Positions 21,941-45,905 of a stretch of 64,000 nt of DNA are shown here, one piece after another. Origin of the DNA: Bdellovibrionales bacterium (GTDB taxonomy: Bacteria > Bdellovibrionota > Bdellovibrionia > Bdellovibrionales > UBA1609); the NCBI GenBank assembly GCA_965261545.1, contig CBDHDF010000007.1, positions 320,001 through 384,000 of the forward strand, written 5' to 3'. Within the stretch, counting starts at the first letter, position 1; each line of letters begins with the position of its first letter. Both the position numbers and the translations under genes were made by a program. The notes beneath the pieces are model-generated. The model saw only the letters and a list, made by a program, of their open reading frames with translations. It was not told the DNA's origin and did not search any database.

Positions 21941-22609
21941 ATAATCAGTCGTTCCTATGGAGGAAAGTTATTCAGACCATCTCCAGAAACTTTTCAGAGG
22001 GATGATGATTTACTTATTGTGGTCACTCCTTGGGGACCTAGAGAGTCTGCAAAAAATCTTATAGAAACAGTGAATGAGCACTGTATTTCCCACGAAAATA
22101 GTATGGAAGTCACATCACCATTTGGGTGGCTCACCTATCTATCACCTCTTGGAAATTGGCTGCGAACAGCTCTTATGATTGCTAACAACAAGCTTTGCTC
22201 CGAAGAAAATAGTTACGAGTACCAGTCGGGAGTGGAGATTCTTGCCCTTTGGCGAGATGGTGAGGACTTATGTTTAGGTCACATTGGAGGGCCACATGTG
22301 TTTATTGATCGCAAAGGCTCTAACCTCATACCCCTTGTGTCTGGGTGGGATTTGTCTACAGAAATGTGTGTAAACCATCAATTGCCTCCTCCGCTTCCTA
22401 AAGAGTTGGCAGGAATCCATCAACCTGCTAATATTCATATAATGTCTATGAAACTTTTTGAAGGGGATCGTATTATTTTGCTAAGTCGATCTTATGTGCC
22501 CAATGCCTTTTACGCCCTCTCCAGGGACAAAAGAAATCTCAGTGGTATCTCACAGGCTCTGGCTCAGTCCGACCCCCATTGCCCCTTCTGGCTAGGAGTC
22601 ACTTCATGA
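21932..22609 (+). CDS. Degenerate PP2C/PPM phosphatase-like protein
   Basis: LRTALMIANNKL, GHIG, GDRIILLS resemble PP2C motifs, but the metal-binding Asp residues (ADG, SDG, DN) are missing. Confidence 0.55.
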   Translation: MKDIISRSYGGKLFRPSPETFQRDDDLLIVVTPWGPRESAKNLIETVNEHCISHENSMEVTSPFGWLTYLSPLGNWLRTALMIANNKLCSEENSYEYQSGVEILALWRDGEDLCLGHIGGPHVFIDRKGSNLIPLVSGWDLSTEMCVNHQLPPPLPKELAGIHQPANIHIMSMKLFEGDRIILLSRSYVPNAFYALSRDKRNLSGISQALAQSDPHCPFWLGVTS

Positions 22610-23391
22610 GTGAGCACAAGACACAGTTTACGAACAATGATACTATTTACGGTCCCGTTCAAAGTCGTCGCATGGGATGGAGCCTAGGAATCAATCTTTT
22701 AGGACACGAACATAAAGTTTGCTCTTATAACTGTCCCTACTGTGAATTGGGAGAAAGTAAACTTCGCCTGAATCAAGTGGGGCGAACGATCAAATTTCAT
22801 CCCCCCGAGGTTATCAATGATCGATTTGTAAAAAAACTCTCTGATATCCAGCTCTCACCTCATCCCATAGAATCCATATGCAATTCAGGTTATGGTGAAC
22901 CCACCTTGTATCATCCTTTTAAAGAGGTGAGTGAAATGATCTACCATTCACGGAACGAAATTATGGGAAATGCTAAACTCCATCTCCTTACAAATGGAGC
23001 TCATTTTGATCAAAAAAAGGTTCTTGCAAGTCTTCCCTACTATGATTTTATTCATGTAAAGTTTGATGCGGGAGACGATCAAATTTTAAAACAGATCAAT
23101 GCTCCCCTTGTTCGGACCAATATCAACAAAATTCTCCACCAACTCCGAAGTATCGATCATTTAATTCTACAATCTATGTTTGTGACAGGGAGTGTGGACA
23201 ATACCACAAACGCTGCTGTTGAGTCTTGGATGGAGGCTGTGGGCATTGTTCAACCCCAGGTGGTTCATCTTTACACCCTAGATAGAAAGCCCACAGACGC
23301 CACTATTCTCAAGGTGGACGAAGACATCCTCGATATTATTGGAACGAAGCTTCGGCGCAAGACTCAAATAGAGTATCATGTGTTTTACTAA
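22606..23391 (+). CDS. Radical SAM protein
   Basis: IYGPVQSRRMGWSLGINL, CSYNCPYC (CxxxCxxC), SGYGEPTL; ATG at 22606 overlaps the upstream TGA. Confidence 0.9.
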   Translation: MSEHKTQFTNNDTIYGPVQSRRMGWSLGINLLGHEHKVCSYNCPYCELGESKLRLNQVGRTIKFHPPEVINDRFVKKLSDIQLSPHPIESICNSGYGEPTLYHPFKEVSEMIYHSRNEIMGNAKLHLLTNGAHFDQKKVLASLPYYDFIHVKFDAGDDQILKQINAPLVRTNINKILHQLRSIDHLILQSMFVTGSVDNTTNAAVESWMEAVGIVQPQVVHLYTLDRKPTDATILKVDEDILDIIGTKLRRKTQIEYHVFY

Positions 23392-23398
23392 AATTCTT
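23391..23398. repeat. 8-bp target-site duplication AAATTCTT, left copy (partner 31653-31660), bounding the IS110/IS66 nest
   Basis: AAATTCTT directly precedes GTAAC at 23399 and directly follows GTTAC at 31652; 8 bp is the usual IS66 TSD length. Confidence 0.9.
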
Positions 23399-23596
23399 GT
23401 AACATTCATGGGGGCGCCTTGCTTCCCCACCCACGCCCATGAATCTTTCTAGGCCCCCACTTCTTTGCACGAAGCAACTCGGTGGACAGCTTCGCTGGTC
23501 TATATAATTGGCCTCTTTTAGTTACTCTGGACTTTTGATGGTATTTTTGTCATGTATGATTCCGATACAATAAAGGATAAAGCAATAACATTATTG

Positions 23597-23783
23597 GAAG
23601 GTGATAAGATGAGTGGCCGTTGAATAGATTGGTAATTTTAATTCCGTGAAGTAACATGGTCTTGAGCTTTGGATCGAACCCACGCATGTACCTGCACTCT
23701 GAGTGTATGGACGTATAGTAAGTTGACCTATTTTCGCTTTAGAATTTATGGCAAAATCCCAAGGCTCTAGTTTTATCACCTTC
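23597..23783 (+). ncRNA. Predicted IS110 bridge/seek-type guide RNA (also at 25301-25487 and, reversed, in copy 3)
   Basis: Outer stem GAAGGTGATAA/TTATCACCTTC followed by a T-run; loop closed by GGCCGT/ATGGTC carrying TGAATAG and GTAAC (target match); second domain closed by GAGCTTTGGAT/ATCCCAAGGCTC carrying TGAGTGT and ATAGTAA (donor match). Confidence 0.7.
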
Positions 23784-23811
23784 TTTTTTTCTAACAGAAA
23801 GGAGGAGTCAT

Positions 23812-25014
23812 GTGGATATTATTTATAGTTCTGTTTGTGGAATAGATGTTCATCAACATATGTTGATGTGTACGATTGTCAAAGTGGAAGACGGTAAGAA
23901 GAAGTTTTTCACAAAAGAGTTCAAGAATTTTCCAAAAAATTTTCCTAGAATGCGCTCTTGGATGAAGCCACATAAGGTTGAGAGAGTTCTTTTTGAGAGC
24001 ACAGGGATTTATTGGAATTCTTTATACGATGATTTGACAGAAAAAGGTTATGAAGTAGATGTTATCAATGCCTTTCATGTCAAAAATATTACTGGTAAAA
24101 AAACTGACGTGTTGGATAGCCAGTGGATTGCAGAGCTTGGTGCTTGTGGTCTTCTAAGAGCTAGCTTCATTCCTCCACGTGAGATTCGTTCTATTAGACT
24201 TTTGGCTCGTTATCGTACAAAAACGATCCGCCAAATATCTTCGGAACAAAATCGTATGTATAAGGTTCTTGAATATTCAGGCATTCGTTTAACCTATGCA
24301 ATGTCTAAAGCTGACTGCGTATCTGGTATGGCCATGATTCGTGCCATAGCTAATGGAGAGAGATCAGTTTCTAAATTGATGTCTCTTGCCAGAGGGTCTT
24401 TACGTCAAAAGACCGAAGAATTTTCTTACGCCCTGTCGGGAAAGATGACGGAAGAAAATCGTTTTGTTCTTCAACGCATTCTTGATCGAATAGATTTTTT
24501 GAAAAAAGAATGCTCTCAAATTGAAGAAGAACTTTTCATTCGTATGAAACCCTATGAAAGGCAGTGGCATCTACTCCAGACTATACCTGGAATTGACGAA
24601 TTAAGTGCAGCGCTTTTGATTGCAGAAATAGGAGGCAATGTGAAGTCTTTTAAAAATAAAGGAAATTTTTGCTCCTGGATGGGGATTTGCCCATCCAATA
24701 ATGAGAGCGCAGGAAAAAAAAAGTCTTCACGAACGAGGAAAGCGAACACATATGTGAAATCGTTGGTATGTGAGATGGCCAATAGTGCTATTAAGACGAA
24801 TTCACAATTCAAAGGCAAATACCAATCACTTGTTATAAGGCGTGGGCACAAGAGATCAGTGATTGCCGTTGGTCACAAAATGATGGGAGTTGTTTATTCA
24901 GTCATAAGTAATGACACCCCCTACAAAGACCCTGGAATTGACTATGAAAAGCTCATGGTGAAAAAAAATGCACCAAGGTGGATTAGAGCGTTAAAAAAGT
25001 ATGATTTCATGTAA
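23812..25014 (+). CDS. IS110-family DEDD recombinase/transposase
   Basis: GIDVH, FESTG, KKTDVLDS (DEDD); TIPGI; NESAGK catalytic-Ser region; RBS AGGAGG. Confidence 0.95.
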   Translation: MDIIYSSVCGIDVHQHMLMCTIVKVEDGKKKFFTKEFKNFPKNFPRMRSWMKPHKVERVLFESTGIYWNSLYDDLTEKGYEVDVINAFHVKNITGKKTDVLDSQWIAELGACGLLRASFIPPREIRSIRLLARYRTKTIRQISSEQNRMYKVLEYSGIRLTYAMSKADCVSGMAMIRAIANGERSVSKLMSLARGSLRQKTEEFSYALSGKMTEENRFVLQRILDRIDFLKKECSQIEEELFIRMKPYERQWHLLQTIPGIDELSAALLIAEIGGNVKSFKNKGNFCSWMGICPSNNESAGKKKSSRTRKANTYVKSLVCEMANSAIKTNSQFKGKYQSLVIRRGHKRSVIAVGHKMMGVVYSVISNDTPYKDPGIDYEKLMVKKNAPRWIRALKKYDFM

Positions 25015-25102
25015 TGTAGGATGATTTAAAAACTCGGACATTTGAAAAAATTCGAAGAACGGATAGTGGATTCGTGCGTCCAAACTACCCCGGAGATTCA
25101 TA

Positions 25103-26806
25103 GTAACATTCATGGGGGCGCCTTGCTTCCCCACCCACGCCCATGAATCTTTCTAGGCCCCCACTTCTTTGCACGAAGCAACTCGGTGGACAGCTTCGCT
25201 GGTCTATATAATTGGCCTCTTTTAGTTACTCTGGACTTTTGATGGTATTTTTGTCATGTATGATTCCGATACAATAAAGGATAAAGCAATAACATTATTG
25301 GAAGGTGATAAGATGAGTGGCCGTTGAATAGATTGGTAATTTTAATTCCGTGAAGTAACATGGTCTTGAGCTTTGGATCGAACCCACGCATGTACCTGCA
25401 CTCTGAGTGTATGGACGTATAGTAAGTTGACCTATTTTCGCTTTAGAATTTATGGCAAAATCCCAAGGCTCTAGTTTTATCACCTTCTTTTTTTCTAACA
25501 GAAAGGAGGAGTCATGTGGATATTATTTATAGTTCTGTTTGTGGAATAGATGTTCATCAACATATGTTGATGTGTACGATTGTCAAAGTGGAAGACGGTA
25601 AGAAGAAGTTTTTCACAAAAGAGTTCAAGAATTTTCCAAAAAATTTTCCTAGAATGCGCTCTTGGATGAAGCCACATAAGGTTGAGAGAGTTCTTTTTGA
25701 GAGCACAGGGATTTATTGGAATTCTTTATACGATGATTTGACAGAAAAAGGTTATGAAGTAGATGTTATCAATGCCTTTCATGTCAAAAATATTACTGGT
25801 AAAAAAACTGACGTGTTGGATAGCCAGTGGATTGCAGAGCTTGGTGCTTGTGGTCTTCTAAGAGCTAGCTTCATTCCTCCACGTGAGATTCGTTCTATTA
25901 GACTTTTGGCTCGTTATCGTACAAAAACGATCCGCCAAATATCTTCGGAACAAAATCGTATGTATAAGGTTCTTGAATATTCAGGCATTCGTTTAACCTA
26001 TGCAATGTCTAAAGCTGACTGCGTATCTGGTATGGCCATGATTCGTGCCATAGCTAATGGAGAGAGATCAGTTTCTAAATTGATGTCTCTTGCCAGAGGG
26101 TCTTTACGTCAAAAGACCGAAGAATTTTCTTACGCCCTGTCGGGAAAGATGACGGAAGAAAATCGTTTTGTTCTTCAACGCATTCTTGATCGAATAGATT
26201 TTTTGAAAAAAGAATGCTCTCAAATTGAAGAAGAACTTTTCATTCGTATGAAACCCTATGAAAGGCAGTGGCATCTACTCCAGACTATACCTGGAATTGA
26301 CGAATTAAGTGCAGCGCTTTTGATTGCAGAAATAGGAGGCAATGTGAAATCTTTTAAAAATAAAGGAAATTTTTGCTCCTGGATGGGGATTTGCCCATCC
26401 AATAATGAGAGCGCAGGAAAAAAAAAGTCTTCACGAACGAGGAAAGCGAACACATATGTGAAATCGTTGGTATGTGAGATGGCCAATAGTGCTATTAAGA
26501 CGAATTCACAATTCAAAGGCAAATACCAATCACTTGTTATAAGGCGTGGGCACAAGAGATCAGTGATTGCCGTTGGTCACAAAATGATGGGAGTTGTTTA
26601 TTCAGTCATAAGTAATGACACCCCCTACAAAGACCCTGGAATTGACTATGAAAAGCTCATGGTGAAAAAAAATGCACCAAGGTGGATTAGAGCGTTAAAA
26701 AAGTATGATTTCATGTAATGTAGGATGATTTAAAAACTCGGACATTTGAAAAAATTCGAAGAACGGATAGTGGATTCGTGCGTCCAAACTACCCCGGAGA
26801 TTCATA
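25103..26806 (+). mobile_element. IS110-family element, copy 2 (head-to-tail with copy 1)
   Basis: Junction GGAGATTCATA-GTAAC-ATTCATGGGGG at about 25092-25118; ends abutting the IS66 left TIR. Confidence 0.95.
25516..26718 (+). CDS. IS110-family recombinase/transposase (same protein as 23812..25014)
   Basis: Same 400-aa sequence. Confidence 0.95.
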   Translation: MDIIYSSVCGIDVHQHMLMCTIVKVEDGKKKFFTKEFKNFPKNFPRMRSWMKPHKVERVLFESTGIYWNSLYDDLTEKGYEVDVINAFHVKNITGKKTDVLDSQWIAELGACGLLRASFIPPREIRSIRLLARYRTKTIRQISSEQNRMYKVLEYSGIRLTYAMSKADCVSGMAMIRAIANGERSVSKLMSLARGSLRQKTEEFSYALSGKMTEENRFVLQRILDRIDFLKKECSQIEEELFIRMKPYERQWHLLQTIPGIDELSAALLIAEIGGNVKSFKNKGNFCSWMGICPSNNESAGKKKSSRTRKANTYVKSLVCEMANSAIKTNSQFKGKYQSLVIRRGHKRSVIAVGHKMMGVVYSVISNDTPYKDPGIDYEKLMVKKNAPRWIRALKKYDFM

Positions 26807-28521
26807 GTAACTATTCAGGGGGTGCCGCATTAATTCGAACAATTTTTTTAAAAAAAGTATAAAAATTCTTGACAAGTTTTTGAAGCAAACGACCTCTTTC
26901 ATTTGTTCTTTATCGAATATGTTCCTGCATATGGCTTAAACTCTCTGAGAGCCATAGTATTGAAAGATTGTGAAACATAGGTCGCGGGGGGCACTTCTCA
27001 TTCCTTTTGCTTCTTAGAACGAATCCTAGTGCATTTTTTTTAATGAAAAAAAGGCATGTTAATATTTTCATAAGGTAAGTATGAAAATAGAAAATATTGA
27101 CGTGTCTTCAGCCATAAATAAAATCAGGAAGCTTCTTAAGAAAGAGAAGTCCCTTTCTCCCGCTTTTATTGTGGCCATTGAGTTGTTGATCAAAATCATC
27201 ACTATTCTAGTAAATCAAAAAAAATTAAATAGTCAAAACAGTAGTATTGCCCCTTCTCAAGATCCGAATGGCCCTAAAAAGAAACCTAAGGAAGAAACTG
27301 GTAAGAAGCCAGGAGGACAACCCGGACACGAAGGAGCTACTTTAAAACCCGTGGATACTCCAGACAAGGTGGAGTTCATTTCTATTAATAAAGAGGAACT
27401 TCCTCCAGGTGATTACATTTCTTCTGGAGTTGAAAAGCGTCAAGTATTTGAGGTAGACCTTTCTGTGCATGTCACGGAGTATCAAGGAGAAATCCTCGAA
27501 GACCAAGATGGGAATCAGTGGGTTGCAGGTTTTCCAGAAGGAATCAATAACCCAACTCAATATGGCCCTTCTGTGAAAGCTCACTCAGTTTATATGTCCC
27601 AGTTTCAGTTAATCCCTCATCTTCGAGTCGCAAGTTACTTTAATCAATGGGGTCTATCGCTTGCTGGATCTACGGTACACAATTTTAACAAATCTGCCTT
27701 TGAGGCTCTGGAAGCTTTTGAGGAGTGGGCAAAGGAAACTCTTCTGAACTCACCTTTGATTCATGCTGACGAAACTGGAGTGAATGTTAATGGGAAGAGG
27801 CTGTGGTTTCACCTCTTGTCCAATGATACTGTGGTTCTCTATCAGGTGGACGAAAAAAGAGGCGCAGAGGCTATGGATCGCATGGGAATTCTTCCAAAAT
27901 ACACAGGGATTGTTTGTCATGACCATTGGAAACCTTATTATACATATACTTCCTGCATTCATGCCCTTTGCAATGCGCACCATTTAAGGGAGCTTCAAAG
28001 AGCTTGGGAGCAAGATGATCAAAAATGGGCAAAAGAAATGAAGTCTCTTTTAGAGACAATAAACAAAGAGGTGCACGATACGCAGAACCAATGCCTTTCA
28101 CAAGACCGAATTGAATATTACAAAGAGAAATATCGAAATATTCTCTTCGAAGGGGAAAAGGAATCTCCATTAATGGAGAGGACAGAGAAAAAAAAGAAGG
28201 GAAAGGTTAAACAATCCAAATCTAGAAATTTACTAGATCGACTGAGAAACTTTGAAGATGATACCTTGCTATTTATGAAGGACCCCATAGTTCCATTTAC
28301 GAATAATATAGCAGAAAATGATCTGAGAATGACCAAAGTTCAGCAGAAAATATCTGGGTGCTTTCGTTCGTTGATGGGAGCCAAGACATTTTGTAGAAAC
28401 CGAAGCTTTCTCCTGACTTGCCAGAAAAATGGCATAGAACCTAAAGATGCTCTAAATATGCTATTTCAAGGAAAACTTCCCTCATTTATGACTCGAATTC
28501 GCCCACCCCCTGAATAGTTAC
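26807..28521 (+). mobile_element. IS66-family element (single-ORF, ISBst12-like), 1715 bp
   Basis: TIRs GTAACTATTCAGGGGGTG / CACCCCCTGAATAGTTAC; 8-bp TSD displaced outward by the IS110 insertions. Confidence 0.93.
27081..28517 (+). CDS. IS66-family transposase TnpC
   Basis: NSQNSSIAPSQD, GGQPGHEG, HADETG, HDHWKPY, CNAHHLREL, FTNNIAENDLRMTKVQQKISGCFRS. Confidence 0.95.
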   Translation: MKIENIDVSSAINKIRKLLKKEKSLSPAFIVAIELLIKIITILVNQKKLNSQNSSIAPSQDPNGPKKKPKEETGKKPGGQPGHEGATLKPVDTPDKVEFISINKEELPPGDYISSGVEKRQVFEVDLSVHVTEYQGEILEDQDGNQWVAGFPEGINNPTQYGPSVKAHSVYMSQFQLIPHLRVASYFNQWGLSLAGSTVHNFNKSAFEALEAFEEWAKETLLNSPLIHADETGVNVNGKRLWFHLLSNDTVVLYQVDEKRGAEAMDRMGILPKYTGIVCHDHWKPYYTYTSCIHALCNAHHLRELQRAWEQDDQKWAKEMKSLLETINKEVHDTQNQCLSQDRIEYYKEKYRNILFEGEKESPLMERTEKKKKGKVKQSKSRNLLDRLRNFEDDTLLFMKDPIVPFTNNIAENDLRMTKVQQKISGCFRSLMGAKTFCRNRSFLLTCQKNGIEPKDALNMLFQGKLPSFMTRIRPPPE

Positions 28522-29051
28522 TATGAATCTCCGGGGTAGTTTGGACGCACGAATCCACTATCCGTTCTTCGAATTTTTTCAAATGTCCGAGTTTTTAAAT
28601 CATCCTACATTACATGAAATCATACTTTTTTAACGCTCTAATCCACCTTGGTGCATTTTTTTTCACCATGAGCTTTTCATAGTCAATTCCAGGGTCTTTG
28701 TAGGGGGTGTCATTACTTATGACTGAATAAACAACTCCCATCATTTTGTGACCAACGGCAATCACTGATCTCTTGTGCCCACGCCTTATAACAAGTGATT
28801 GGTATTTGCCTTTGAATTGTGAATTCGTCTTAATAGCACTATTGGCCATCTCACATACCAACGATTTCACATATGTGTTCGCTTTCCTCGTTCGTGAAGA
28901 CTTTTTTTTTCCTGCGCTCTCATTATTGGATGGGCAAATCCCCATCCAGGAGCAAAAATTTCCTTTATTTTTAAAAGACTTCACATTGCCTCCTATTTCT
29001 GCAATCAAAAGCGCTGCACTTAATTCGTCAATTCCAGGTATAGTCTGGAGT

Positions 29052-30468
29052 CAATGCCGTTTCCTTAAGAAAAATCTCTTGAAATTATTAGATAAATCGA
29101 CAAGAATAAGACTTGTTTTATTTTACACCCAACCCTCAACCAAGGAGTAAGTCACATGCAATCCAATATTGATCTCGAAAGCCCCCAAATGACGAGTTCG
29201 CGTCACAGATGACCATTTTATTCTACCAAAACTTGATTCTTCCTTCAAGCCAGAGCACCTTGTCGATCCAGAAAAACAAAAAAGGAATCGAAAATTTAAT
29301 CCTCAAATTTTCTTTTTTACCATTATCTATCTTATTTCAGGAACAAATTACGAAGGCTACCAAATCGCTCTTAAGACGGTATGGACTCATTTTGGTGACC
29401 TGCTTCTCATGCCAGTCAAAAGCAGTCTCAGCAAGATACGTCAAAGTATTTCTTACCTATTTTTCAAAGATATCTTTGAATCTCTGATTACAGACTACGA
29501 ACCATTGAGAAAAACGTTTCATGGTTTTTATATCTATGCCATAGATGGCGACCAATTAGCACTTCCTCGCTCTAAAGATCTTTTAAAGGAGGGTTATTGT
29601 GGGTACCCTTGCCCAAATGAGATGGAAACTCATTTCTTACGTATGTATCTATCTCATGCTTATGACGTTTTATCGGGTGTGACAAAGAATCTTTGCTTTT
29701 CTCCCGCTCTCAACGAAATCGCCAATGCTATTCAAATGATAGGTAGTTTTGAGAGTAATAGCATAACTCTCTACGATAGGCTTTATTTATCTACAGAGAT
29801 TATTAAGGCCCATGCTCAAGCCAGTAACTTCTTTATTGCGCGTTGTAAGCGAGGCTCTACTTTTATCCCCATCGTAAATTTATTTAATGGCCCAGGTTGG
29901 TATTCACAAATGGTTATTGAGGGGGTGGTCATTCATCTCTATAAGTATAAAAACCCAAAGACTGGGGAGTTCTCTGTTTTGGCCACTAATCTTCCGCATG
30001 GCTCCTTGGACAAGAAGGATATGGTTGCTCTTTACTCTCGTCGTTGGGAAATAGAAACGACATTTCGTGATTTTACATCGACAATGAAAATGGAGCAGTG
30101 GCACTCAACAAGCCTTAATGGAATATTGCAAGAGCTGTATTCTTATTTTTGGCTCTTCAATTATACAAAGATTCAAATGAGCATAAATGAGGATGAAGAC
30201 AGTGTGAATCAGTTGGTAAAAAATGACTACAAAAAACCTAACTTTAAACTGATTCTTGATTTCATAATGGATAGCATCCCCCTTTTTGTTGCGGGGCTCT
30301 ATCAGAAATTTAGGAAGCAGATAAAGTTGCTGATGAAGATTTCAATGGAGAAGAGGAGGCACTTCAAAAGAAGCTATGAAAGGTCTATCAAAAGGGCTGG
30401 GAGTTCTTTTAAAAGAAATAGCTTAACGCAGAGGCAGAGGGGTGTGGTGGCTTAAGGAAACGGCATTG
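29052..30468 (+). mobile_element. IS4-family element A, copy 1
   Basis: 18-bp TIR CAATGCCGTTTCCTTAAG; 10-bp TSD AGTCTGGAGT (29042-29051, 30469-30478). Confidence 0.93.
29409..30455 (+). CDS. IS4-family DDE transposase (5' part appears frameshifted; likely start 29156)
   Basis: AIDG, YDRLY, Y..RWEIE..FR..(YREK-like); frame is open from 29193, while the RBS and ATG at 29156 are in another frame. Confidence 0.88.
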   Translation: MPVKSSLSKIRQSISYLFFKDIFESLITDYEPLRKTFHGFYIYAIDGDQLALPRSKDLLKEGYCGYPCPNEMETHFLRMYLSHAYDVLSGVTKNLCFSPALNEIANAIQMIGSFESNSITLYDRLYLSTEIIKAHAQASNFFIARCKRGSTFIPIVNLFNGPGWYSQMVIEGVVIHLYKYKNPKTGEFSVLATNLPHGSLDKKDMVALYSRRWEIETTFRDFTSTMKMEQWHSTSLNGILQELYSYFWLFNYTKIQMSINEDEDSVNQLVKNDYKKPNFKLILDFIMDSIPLFVAGLYQKFRKQIKLLMKISMEKRRHFKRSYERSIKRAGSSFKRNSLTQRQRGVVA

Positions 30469-31652
30469 AGTCTGGAGTAGATGCCACTGCCTTTCATAGG
30501 GTTTCATACGAATGAAAAGTTCTTCTTCAATTTGAGAGCATTCTTTTTTCAAAAAATCTATTCGATCAAGAATGCGTTGAAGAACAAAACGATTTTCTTC
30601 CGTCATCTTTCCCGACAGGGCGTAAGAAAATTCTTCGGTCTTTTGACGTAAAGACCCTCTGGCAAGAGACATCAATTTAGAAACTGATCTCTCTCCATTA
30701 GCTATGGCACGAATCATGGCCATACCAGATACGCAGTCAGCTTTAGACATTGCATAGGTTAAACGAATGCCTGAATATTCAAGAACCTTATACATACGAT
30801 TTTGTTCCGAAGATATTTGGCGGATCGTTTTTGTACGATAACGAGCCAAAAGTCTAATAGAACGAATCTCACGTGGAGGAATGAAGCTAGCTCTTAGAAG
30901 ACCACAAGCACCAAGCTCTGCAATCCACTGGCTATCCAACACGTCAGTTTTTTTACCAGTAATATTTTTGACATGAAAGGCATTGATAACATCTACTTCA
31001 TAACCTTTTTCTGTCAAATCATCGTATAAAGAATTCCAATAAATCCCTGTGCTCTCAAAAAGAACTCTCTCAACCTTATGTGGCTTCATCCAAGAGCGCA
31101 TTCTAGGAAAATTTTTTGGAAAATTCTTGAACTCTTTTGTGAAAAACTTCTTCTTACCGTCTTCCACTTTGACAATCGTACACATCAACATATGTTGATG
31201 AACATCTATTCCACAAACAGAACTATAAATAATATCCACATGACTCCTCCTTTCTGTTAGAAAAAAAGAAGGTGATAAAACTAGAGCCTTGGGATTTTGC
31301 CATAAATTCTAAAGCGAAAATAGGTCAACTTACTATACGTCCATACACTCAGAGTGCAGGTACATGCGTGGGTTCGATCCAAAGCTCAAGACCATGTTAC
31401 TTCACGGAATTAAAATTACCAATCTATTCAACGGCCACTCATCTTATCACCTTCCAATAATGTTATTGCTTTATCCTTTATTGTATCGGAATCATACATG
31501 ACAAAAATACCATCAAAAGTCCAGAGTAACTAAAAGAGGCCAATTATATAGACCAGCGAAGCTGTCCACCGAGTTGCTTCGTGCAAAGAAGTGGGGGCCT
31601 AGAAAGATTCATGGGCGTGGGTGGGGAAGCAAGGCGCCCCCATGAATGTTAC

Positions 31653-31660
31653 AAATTCTT
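31653..31660. repeat. 8-bp target-site duplication AAATTCTT, right copy
   Basis: Direct repeat of 23391-23398. Confidence 0.9.
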
Positions 31661-44494: not shown

Positions 44495-45905
44495 CAATGC
44501 CGTTTCCTTAAGCCACCACACCCCTCTGCGTTAAGCTATTTCTTTTAAAAGAACTCCCAGCCCTTTTGATAGACCTTTCATAGCTTCTTTTGAAGTGCCT
44601 CCTCTTCTCCATTGAAATCTTCATCAGCAACTTTATCTGCTTCCTAAATTTCTGATAGAGCCCCGCAACAAAAAGAGGGATGCTATCCATTATGAAATCA
44701 AGAATCAGTTTAAAGTTAGGTTTTTTGTAGTCATTTTTCACCAACTGATTCACACTGTCTTCATCCTCATTTATGCTCATTTGAATCTTTGTATAATTGA
44801 AGAGCCAAAAATAAGAATACAGCTCTTGCAATATTCCATTAAGGCTTGTTGAGTGCCACTGCTCCATTTTCATTGTCGATGTAAAATCACGAAATGTCGT
44901 TTCTATTTCCCAACGACGAGAGTAAAGAGCAACCATATCCTTCTTGTCCAAGGAGCCATGCGGAAGATTAGTGGCCAAAACAGAGAACTCCCCAGTCTTT
45001 GGGTTTTTATACTTATAGAGATGAATGACCACCCCCTCAATAACCATTTGTGAATACCAACCTGGGCCATTAAATAAATTTACGATGGGGATAAAAGTAG
45101 AGCCTCGCTTACAACGCGCAATAAAGAAGTTACTGGCTTGAGCATGGGCCTTAATAATCTCTGTAGATAAATAAAGCCTATCGTAGAGAGTTATGCTATT
45201 ACTCTCAAAACTACCTATCATTTGAATAGCATTGGCGATTTCGTTGAGAGCGGGAGAAAAGCAAAGATTCTTTGTCACACCCGATAAAACGTCATAAGCA
45301 TGAGATAGATACATACGTAAGAAATGAGTTTCCATCTCATTTGGGCAAGGGTACCCACAATAACCCTCCTTTAAAAGATCTTTAGAGCGAGGAAGTGCTA
45401 ATTGGTCGCCATCTATGGCATAGATATAAAAACCATGAAACGTTTTTCTCAATGGTTCGTAGTCTGTAATCAGAGATTCAAAGATATCTTTGAAAAATAG
45501 GTAAGAAATACTTTGACGTATCTTGCTGAGACTGCTTTTGACTGGCATGAGAAGCAGGTCACCAAAATGAGTCCATACCGTCTTAAGAGCGATTTGGTAG
45601 CCTTCGTAATTTGTTCCGGAAATAAGATAGATAATGGTAAAAAAGAAAATTTGAGGATTAAATTTTCGATTCCTTTTTTGTTTTTCTGGATCGACAAGGT
45701 GCTCTGGCTTGAAGGAAGAATCAAGTTTTGGTAGAATAAAATGGTCATCTGTGACGCGAACTCGTCATTTGGGGGCTTTCGAGATCAATATTGGATTGCA
45801 TGTGACTTACTCCTTGGTTGAGGGTTGGGTGTAAAATAAAACAAGTCTTATTCTTGTCGATTTATCTAATGATTTCAAGAGATTTTTCTTAAGGAAACGG
45901 CATTG
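44495..45905 (-). mobile_element. IS4-family element A, copy 2, inserted in the left TIR of element B
   Basis: TIR CAATGCCGTTTCCTTAAG; 10-bp TSD ACCCATAGGT (44485-44494, 45906-45915). Confidence 0.93.
44508..45548 (-). CDS. IS4-family transposase (copy of 29409..30455)
   Basis: Near-identical protein lacking the 2-aa QR duplication. Confidence 0.88.
   Translation of the reverse strand: MPVKSSLSKIRQSISYLFFKDIFESLITDYEPLRKTFHGFYIYAIDGDQLALPRSKDLLKEGYCGYPCPNEMETHFLRMYLSHAYDVLSGVTKNLCFSPALNEIANAIQMIGSFESNSITLYDRLYLSTEIIKAHAQASNFFIARCKRGSTFIPIVNLFNGPGWYSQMVIEGVVIHLYKYKNPKTGEFSVLATNLPHGSLDKKDMVALYSRRWEIETTFRDFTSTMKMEQWHSTSLNGILQELYSYFWLFNYTKIQMSINEDEDSVNQLVKNDYKKPNFKLILDFIMDSIPLFVAGLYQKFRKQIKLLMKISMEKRRHFKRSYERSIKRAGSSFKRNSLTQRGVVA

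Follow-up and report, generated by a model that had tools for sequence, protein, structure and literature searches.

Why do all copies of one insertion sequence (IS) in a stretch of DNA sit at the ends of a single copy of another? The question is raised by a window of 64,000 nucleotides (nt) from a Bdellovibrionales bacterium (contig positions C7:320001-384000; C7 and similar labels denote contigs of the assembly), in which three copies of an IS110-family element, A, B and C, border one IS66-family element. No further IS110 copy occurs in the 64-kb window. As the best explanation overall, the IS110 element very probably integrates at the IS66 end repeat under the direction of a guide, and the repeat is kept and can be used again. 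The locus is composed as follows (window coordinates; lengths in base pairs, bp, or amino acids, aa; ORF, open reading frame):

23391..23398, no strand: left 8-bp target duplication AAATTCTT, made by the IS66-family element; identical 8 bp at 31653-31660
23399..25102, plus strand: IS110 copy A, a 1704-bp unit written from GTAAC to ...ATTCATA, with limits that are ambiguous by the shared GTAA
23608..23768, plus strand: putative bridge-RNA-like non-coding scaffold of copy A (element nt 210-370), derived from an alignment of relatives (~45% identity) and complementarity scans
23812-25014, plus strand: transposase ORF of copy A (400 aa), matching PF01548, PF02371 and NF033542
25103..26806, plus strand: IS110 copy B, head-to-tail after copy A, with its ORF at 25516-26718
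26807..28521, plus strand: IS66-family element, 1715 bp, with one ORF at 27081-28517 (478 aa) matching PF03050 and NF033517
26807-26824 and 28504-28521: end repeats of the IS66-family element, GTAACTATTCAGGGGGTG, in inverted orientation
28522..29051, minus strand: 3' part of IS110 copy C, element nt 1704 down to 1175, its right end adjoining the right IS66 repeat
29052..30468, plus strand: IS4-family element, 1417 bp, interrupting IS110 copy C
30469..31652, minus strand: 5' part of IS110 copy C, element nt 1184 down to 1
31653..31660, no strand: right 8-bp duplication AAATTCTT, partner of 23391-23398

Direct reading and repeat finding agree on the arrangement described in the initial annotation, namely two IS110 copies stacked at the left IS66 repeat and one inverted at the right, with the 8-bp duplication outside the IS110 copies. 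The layout was amended in one respect: copy C is split by an IS4-family element that had gone unmentioned. This element has perfect end repeats of 18 bp and is flanked by a 10-bp duplication, AGTCTGGAGT (29042-29051 and 30469-30478). Copies A and B differ by 1 nt. The right ends (...GGAGATTCATA) of all three copies face a GTAAC of the IS66-repeat type. With the junction sequence ...ATTCATA/GTAAC/TATTCAGGGGG, a full repeat is present at every inner junction.

The three copies belong to the IS110 family (IS110 group) and encode a transposase of the RNA-guided type, as had been proposed for them. The ORF matches PF01548 (E 4.8e-23, DEDD/RuvC-like N-terminal domain) and PF02371 (E 4e-21, Transposase_20 C-terminal domain) and scores 245.5 bits against NF033542, 'IS110 family RNA-guided transposase' (cut-off 140). 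The ends, GTAACATTCATGG... and ...GGAGATTCATA, carry neither terminal inverted repeats nor a target duplication of their own, and a GTAA core common to 35 right and 36 left ends occurs once per junction. Elements of the family are RNA-guided (PMC11208160; PMC11187229). In its IS1111 group, subterminal inverted repeats of 11-13 bp lie at distances of 7 and 3 bp from left and right end, respectively, and the guide RNA is located 3' of the gene (PMC11187229). The window element has only an 8-nt inverted match (AGATTCAT / ATGAATCT), at 40 and 5 nt from the respective ends, and its non-coding regions measure 413 nt upstream of the transposase gene versus 88 nt downstream, where an IS1111-type guide RNA would lie.

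The transposase of the middle element matches PF03050 (DDE_Tnp_IS66, E 1.6e-49) and NF033517 (285 bits, cut-off 180). Its 18-bp ends, GTAACTATTCAGGGGGTG, are identical, and 8-bp duplications were found at 7 of 7 loci examined. The canonical IS66 accessory genes tnpA and tnpB are absent from the 1715-bp element with its single 478-aa ORF, which fits the single-ORF subgroup (ISBst12 group). For the IS66 family, end repeats of 20-30 bp starting with GTAA and 8-bp duplications are described (PMC11946415, citing Ross et al. 2021). The interrupting element belongs to the IS4 family (NF033592, 123 bits, cut-off 115).

To see how general the arrangement is, every IS110 end was tabulated in the genome (4.3 Mb, 11 contigs, 41-42% G+C), which carries many copies of the IS110, IS66-family and IS4-family elements. 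All 36 left ends part from the flank exactly before GTAAC (two read TTAAC), and all 35 right ends part from it after ...GGAGATTCATA-GTAA(C/G/A). Fifteen of the 35 right ends adjoin GTAACTATTCAGGG, the IS66 repeat: 13 at intact IS66 ends and 2 at remnants whose IS66 body is missing or severed by an IS4 element. Position and orientation are the same in 15/15, left-type and right-type repeats both being used, so that one position and one orientation within the end repeat of another element recur in 15 arrays. The DNA to the left of GTAA at the target is arbitrary; it is the duplication made by IS66 itself. The other right ends join the left end of another copy in tandem (8/35), lie within IS110 sequence or before a partial right-end fragment (6/35), or occupy other sites (6/35). 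The latter read GTAACTATTCAttatc, GTAACTAcTCA, GTAACTATTtG and GTAACTCttt (one each) and GTAAGtcc (two, in one duplicated unit).

Occupancy rises with the length of the match to the IS66 repeat, from 2/1206 sites with exactly 6 nt and 2/304 with 7-8 nt to 2/20 with 9-11 nt and 15/33 with at least 12 nt (Fisher tests: 15/33 vs 2/20, p = 0.014; vs 2/304, p = 3e-15). Only 33 sites in 4.3 Mb carry at least 12 nt of the repeat, and these hold 15 of the 35 right ends. The arrangement is thus far beyond chance, and the preference for the IS66 repeat is real, strong and exceeds a 7-nt word, yet it is not exclusive: 7/17 left and 6/13 right intact IS66 ends are occupied, and 17/30 are empty. The claim in the initial annotation that the element specifically targets IS66 repeats therefore holds for the fixed position and orientation (15/15) and has to be relaxed with regard to exclusivity, with 20/35 right ends elsewhere. 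Near-universal adjacency of the IS110 copies to IS66, which had been named as the supporting pattern, did not emerge from the flank tabulation, given only 15/35 right ends at IS66 repeats and six at other sites.

The crossover can be located with the help of divergent targets. At a TTAAC target inside another IS110 copy, the left junction reads TTAAC and the right one GTAAC; GTAAG targets gave GTAAC on the left and GTAAG on the right. Repeat positions 1 and 5 go to opposite products, which places the exchange within TAA. In the scheme of IS621, the core marks the end of both sense guides (left target and left donor), which points to AA as the core here. The exchange takes place within GTAA, the first four bases of the repeat, most likely at the AA dinucleotide. 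IS110 always enters with its right end toward IS66. Since this end reads ...ATTCATA-GT before AA, the inner junction again becomes GTAACTATTCAGGGGG and the IS66 repeat is whole, while the outer junction, flank-GTAA-CATTCATGGGGG, resembles an IS66 repeat. As a statement about sequence, the earlier claim that each insertion rebuilds the IS66 repeat is borne out by the complete inner junctions. Judged from these repeats, the IS66 element may remain active and mobile after IS110 loading.

The order of events can be read from the duplications. At 4/4 testable loci, readable on both flanks (the window, C7 211537-216661, C10 189588-193005 and C11 861876-865295), the 8-bp duplication (AAATTCTT, AAATTATC, AATTTTAC and GAGTCAAC) lies outside IS110 plus IS66; in 3/3 naked IS66 copies it lies directly at the repeat. 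In the simplest reading, IS66 came first and IS110 was inserted later between duplication and repeat. A different origin is conceivable if adjacent IS110 and IS66 move together as a composite, an IS66-type transposase acting on the repeat-like left ends of IS110. The outer ends of the window composite are indeed perfect inverted GTAACATTCATGGGGG flanked by the 8-bp duplication, and 51-bp palindromic elements with the same ends also carry 8-bp duplications, so some transposase uses such ends. Against such joint movement stand the three naked IS66 copies together with the 17/30 empty IS66 ends, the number of IS110 copies per IS66 end, which varies from 1 to 4, the presence of IS110 at non-IS66 sites, and two loci with IS110 on one side only, where the duplication spans one true repeat and one look-alike. 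We regard a composite as very improbable.

In the proposed mechanism, the 1704-bp element would enter the outermost bases of the single-ORF IS66 end repeats by conservative site-specific recombination. The recognised target would be GT, the AA core and about 10 bases to the right, read by a bridge RNA that the 413-nt non-coding region at the left end would encode. The closest relatives with readable DNA (44-46% identity, from Endozoicomonas-type and other assemblies) were used for comparison, their multi-copy members giving the ends. Upstream regions aligned with the relatives at ~45% identity have conserved blocks in common, along with a single long-range stem that covaries (9 pairs, 7 with compensatory changes). 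In the relatives a loop AAUACAA or AACACAA matches their own left flanks (AA)TAC-AA or CAC-AA, the U/C change covarying between sub-lineages, and a second loop, CACGGCAAA, is identical to the final 9 nt at the right end of these elements. The corresponding parts of copy A, together with two candidates from the complementarity scans, are:

23664-23673 with 23758-23768: enclosing stem
23649-23655, plus strand: left-target-guide-like AAGUAAC, in the same columns as AAUACAA/AACACAA of the relatives
23714-23721, plus strand: left-donor-guide-like UAUAGUAA, matching the element's own right end cATAGTAA
23742-23747, plus strand: right-donor-guide-like GAAUUU, with the pairing pattern (GAAU.U) of its counterpart in the relatives
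23697-23705, plus strand: candidate right-target guide CUCUGAGUG, nine contiguous pairs with TATTCAGGG, three of them G-U
23617-23627, plus strand: candidate right-target guide CCGUUGAAUAG, 10/11 positions paired

The scaffold of copy A thus appears bridge-RNA-like, with putative left-target and left-donor guides that match the element's own ends. AAGUAAC could pair only with GT and AA of the IS66 repeat, which points towards a right-target guide reading TATTCAGGG as the source of most specificity and agrees with the unconstrained left flanks. The candidate CUCUGAGUG is located just 5' of the left-donor guide, as the right-target guide is in IS621. A 7-nt perfect complement, UAGUUAC (element nt 121-127), was also considered as a guide and dropped, as it lies within a 65-bp module common with an IS256-like element.

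Several results weigh against guide-directed targeting of the IS66 repeat. On the side of the guide, the consensus structure of the aligned upstream regions consists of the one 9-pair stem only, and both right-target candidates were matched by 221/2000 shuffles, which is not significant alone; neither pairs through the core, unlike the guide of IS621. An Rfam scan of copy A returned no matching family, only two sub-threshold chance hits. A promoter/terminator scan gave 0 sites, without a sigma-70-like promoter at the tandem junction or the left end, and 0/4 sequencing runs found are recorded as RNA. On the side of the target, 20/35 right ends lie off IS66 repeats, and all positive evidence on the pairing comes from one genome. 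A DNA search of 60 related genomes revealed no copy of the present IS110 element, only four weak matches of 30-65 nt (E 2.7e-4 to 7.5e-4), and a first protein scan of the genome contig collection gave no close relative. In a second, alignment-based scan, 80 loci of relatives at 30-46% identity were obtained; an IS66 transposase within 2.5 kb was found at 0/80 of them. The junction pattern gave 0 hits in JGI metagenome contigs.

Three hits of the right-end pattern in the JGI contigs showed no similarity to IS110 and were judged to be chance. The closest proteins, from ENA and Logan assemblies, share 74, 70 and 67% identity over the full length, and one 80% over 76% of the query. The multi-copy Endozoicomonas-type relatives have no IS66 repeat at their flanks. 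Relatives L013-L020 (Endozoicomonas- and Sansalvadorimonas-type, 44-45% identity) exhibit an asymmetry opposite to that of the window element: a conserved left flank, (A)A[T/C]AC before AA, matches the loop of the non-coding region, and right flanks vary.

Without a dedicated guide, the IS66 repeat might be hit for its resemblance to the right donor arm of the IS110 element itself, in an IS621-like 'half-match'. The similarity of GTAA-C-ATTCA-TGGGGG to GTAA-CT-ATTCA-GGGGG suggests such a route, which would also account for the free left flank and for tandems, and no clear right-target guide emerged from the shuffle-tested scan. Insertion with one arm plus the core has been reported (bioRxiv 10.64898/2026.08.31.748434), as have one-sided boundaries in expanded loci (bioRxiv 10.64898/2026.08.14.744561). 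All nine sites bearing IS110 left-end sequence outside IS110 (eight listed and a 51-bp palindromic element) are unoccupied (0/9 vs 15/33, p = 0.016), although they are perfect copies of the arm, and this argues for a dedicated reading of the IS66 repeat. The two arms are also one base out of register, so that pairing needs a bulge, and the off-target sites GTAACTATTCAttatc, GTAACTAcTCA and GTAACTATTtG resemble the IS66 repeat and not the donor arm. A half-match reading of the IS66 repeat is therefore disfavoured, and we consider it improbable.

Everything recognised would survive at the inner junction, the site would be reusable and head-to-tail stacks would be formed; where a copy is already resident, half-match recombination at its left junction may contribute. 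In the element map, 7 of the 15 arrays at IS66 repeats contain at least two IS110 copies, the deepest stack comprising four full copies and a fragment (C7 121217-128203). The head-to-tail stacking at IS66 ends noted earlier for the window is hence found repeatedly. Four copies, one of them nested, are present at C7 263185-270021. At eight of ten stack junctions the copies are joined exactly by a single GTAAC.

Homologous or unequal recombination, or local duplication, could produce stacks as well, in place of repeated insertion into a renewed target. The copies are 99.5-100% identical to each other, 25 full-length copies differing at only 19 alignment columns, which makes inter-copy recombination easy. 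Between the copies of some arrays lie additional stretches (right-end fragments of 17, 19 and 154 nt, flank units of 52 and 348 bp) that need further recombination steps, and tandem duplication of whole IS110 modules is reported elsewhere (bioRxiv 10.64898/2026.08.14.744561). The partial right-end fragments would fit a nested insertion into repeat-like right-end sites followed by collapse between long direct repeats. In two arrays, however, stacked neighbours differ at a non-homopolymer indel in element column 50 (C2 82064/83769; C7 126501 versus its three neighbours), so the stacked copies are not plain local duplicates. About half of the depth in Logan contigs carries this indel, depth not being copy number. 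With 8/10 exact single-GTAAC joints and stacks at seven separate IS66 ends in addition, we hold a purely recombinational origin to be possible though unlikely, and renewed insertion into the rebuilt repeat is preferred.

Two further observations concern the stacks. Flank-unit repeats accompany IS110 copies at C7:226765-232573 and C7:311413-314876, as 348-bp or 52-bp upstream pieces starting with GTAAG or GTAACTC; they resemble the 'repeat units' of expanded IS110 loci (bioRxiv 10.64898/2026.08.14.744561). At C10:1009937 and C10:1020994, an IS110 copy lies nested inside a second one, exactly between GACGTATAGTAA and G (element nt ~313-327). This site encodes the left-donor-guide-like segment, a copy of right end plus core, and the nested insertion looks like a natural left-donor half-match event.

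Near-identical IS copies number in the hundreds in this genome, and an assembly artefact might have produced the tandem and inverted arrangement. Logan contigs, all from one sample that is possibly the assembly's own source, bear on this point. In 3/4 runs, pieces of 48-55 nt cross the tandem junction 25102/25103 with 23-30 nt per side; they fall short of the 31-nt bridging rule, are compatible with a tandem or a circle junction alike, and the arrays themselves are not spanned. Even so, junction-spanning words occur in three runs and continuations from the right end into the IS66 repeat as loose ends in two, the same junction types are seen at 15 loci with different unique flanks, and contigs reach up to 1.1 Mb despite the repeats. 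Misassembly is thus extremely improbable.

Sequences related to the IS110 and IS66 ends occur elsewhere in the genome. Palindromic elements of 45-51 bp (C2:618569-618619, C6:99928-99978, C10:204619-204663) have arms that equal IS110 left-end nt 1-46, GTAAC[A/C]TTCATGGGGGCG...CGCCCATGAATGTTAC. They lie between 8-bp direct repeats (AATGAGAC, CAAATACA, CTTCTTTT), carry no IS110 and resemble miniature elements that an IS66-type transposase has mobilised. An autonomous element carrying the look-alike repeat did not turn up in the genome, and other IS66-family transposases therein (22-41% identity, longer matches) have no GTAA..TTCA..GGGG ends within 1.5 kb. Elements of ~106 bp (C11:725851-725956, C6:3544-3650, C10:576451-576556 and, on the minus strand, C2:233621) begin as the IS110 left end (GTAAC-CTTCATGG, with a hairpin) and finish as its right end (ACATTCATA before GTAAC). 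Apparently these are mini-IS110 derivatives without a gene. Their neighbours include one different IS66-type repeat (GTAACTGCTCAGGGGG), one decayed IS66 left repeat and one full IS110 in tandem.

The most abundant repeat found is the 1417-bp IS4-family element (18-bp ends CAATGCCGTTTCCTTAAG, more than 150 full or partial copies), of which the window contains a further copy at 44495-45902. Its insertions are found in IS110 copies and in IS66 repeats, and at C11 994250 it serves in turn as an IS66 target. The 65-bp module mentioned above (window 23481-23545, IS110 nt 83-147) is 94-97% identical in 55 extended copies of an IS256-like element (~1.8 kb), so that two unrelated ISs have a module in common. 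There it is located near one end, antisense to the transposase gene, and contains TGGACA...TATAAT-like hexamers. Directly before the IS pile of the window, an ORF with a radical-SAM domain ends (22579-23391), and the 8-bp duplication begins at its last base.

For the study of target choice by IS110-type elements, the genome provides a natural data set of many copies, with 35 right junctions, 33 cognate sites and a graded series of near-cognate ones. The apparently near-unconstrained left arm and the apparent survival of the site bear on half-match recombination, off-target insertion and missing target immunity in bridge recombinases. Tentatively, and with some doubt, the element could be a natural bridge-RNA element whose normal, rather than off-target, mode is one-armed, reading the core and a right arm within the repeat of another IS, so that the site is handed on, the host IS can still be cut and the element's own left end has turned IS66-like. 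If true, an IS66-type transposase could move IS110-capped composites and the 51-bp palindromic derivatives, and IS66-type GTAA ends might repeatedly serve RNA-guided hyperparasites of the IS110 family as a niche. The locus also documents one mobile element that makes its home at the ends of a second and leaves these intact, which could shape the spread of both in an IS-laden genome.

Targeting of another element's end repeats by the IS110 family has been known since about 2001-2003. IS1383 is filed under this family; insertion of IS4321/IS5075 reportedly interrupts the Tn21 repeat. IS1383 was described with IS1384 in Pseudomonas putida H (Muller, Lauf, Herrmann 2001, Mol Genet Genomics 265:1004; cited in PMC11208160, PMC13626964) and, by the title of that work, has the IS1384 inverted repeats as its specific integration target. 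This is similar to IS110 on IS66 here, with IS1384 as host in place of an IS66-family element. Likewise, IS4321/IS5075 target the 38-bp end repeats of the Tn21 family at a fixed position and orientation (Partridge and Hall 2003; via PMC11187229), and each IS110 lineage is said to have its own target and one orientation (PMC11187229). In contrast to the window element with its upstream non-coding region (413 vs 88 nt), IS4321/IS5075 are members of the IS1111 group and have subterminal inverted repeats as well as a guide RNA 3' of the gene.

IS621 (Durrant et al. 2024, PMC11208160) shares with the present element the transposase family, a core dinucleotide common to both ends and the lack of an own target duplication. 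Its sense left-target and left-donor guides lie 5' of the antisense guides, and here the left-target-like and left-donor-like segments follow in that order (PMC11208160). However, IS621 has a CT core and a REP-type target of which both arms are read, whereas the core here is AA and the left arm pairs only ~2 nt beyond it, so that the target, unlike that of IS621, would be defined almost wholly on the right.

With regard to novelty, no IS110-IS66 pairing was found in our literature searches, in line with the initial annotation, but the targeting of IS1384 by IS1383 and tandem IS110 modules are in print. Tandem copies of whole modules with partial or flank repeat units at their boundaries (bioRxiv 10.64898/2026.08.14.744561) and one-armed 'half-match' recombination (bioRxiv 10.64898/2026.08.31.748434) are described in preprints from 2026. 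These have one-armed recognition, tandem modules and boundary repeat units in common with this locus; in contrast to them, the recognised part of the target is retained here at the inner junction. The locus looks like a natural exception because the recognised part is almost wholly one-sided. What is new here is the IS110-IS66 pairing, with its repeat-preserving crossover and one-sided recognition, rather than a principle.

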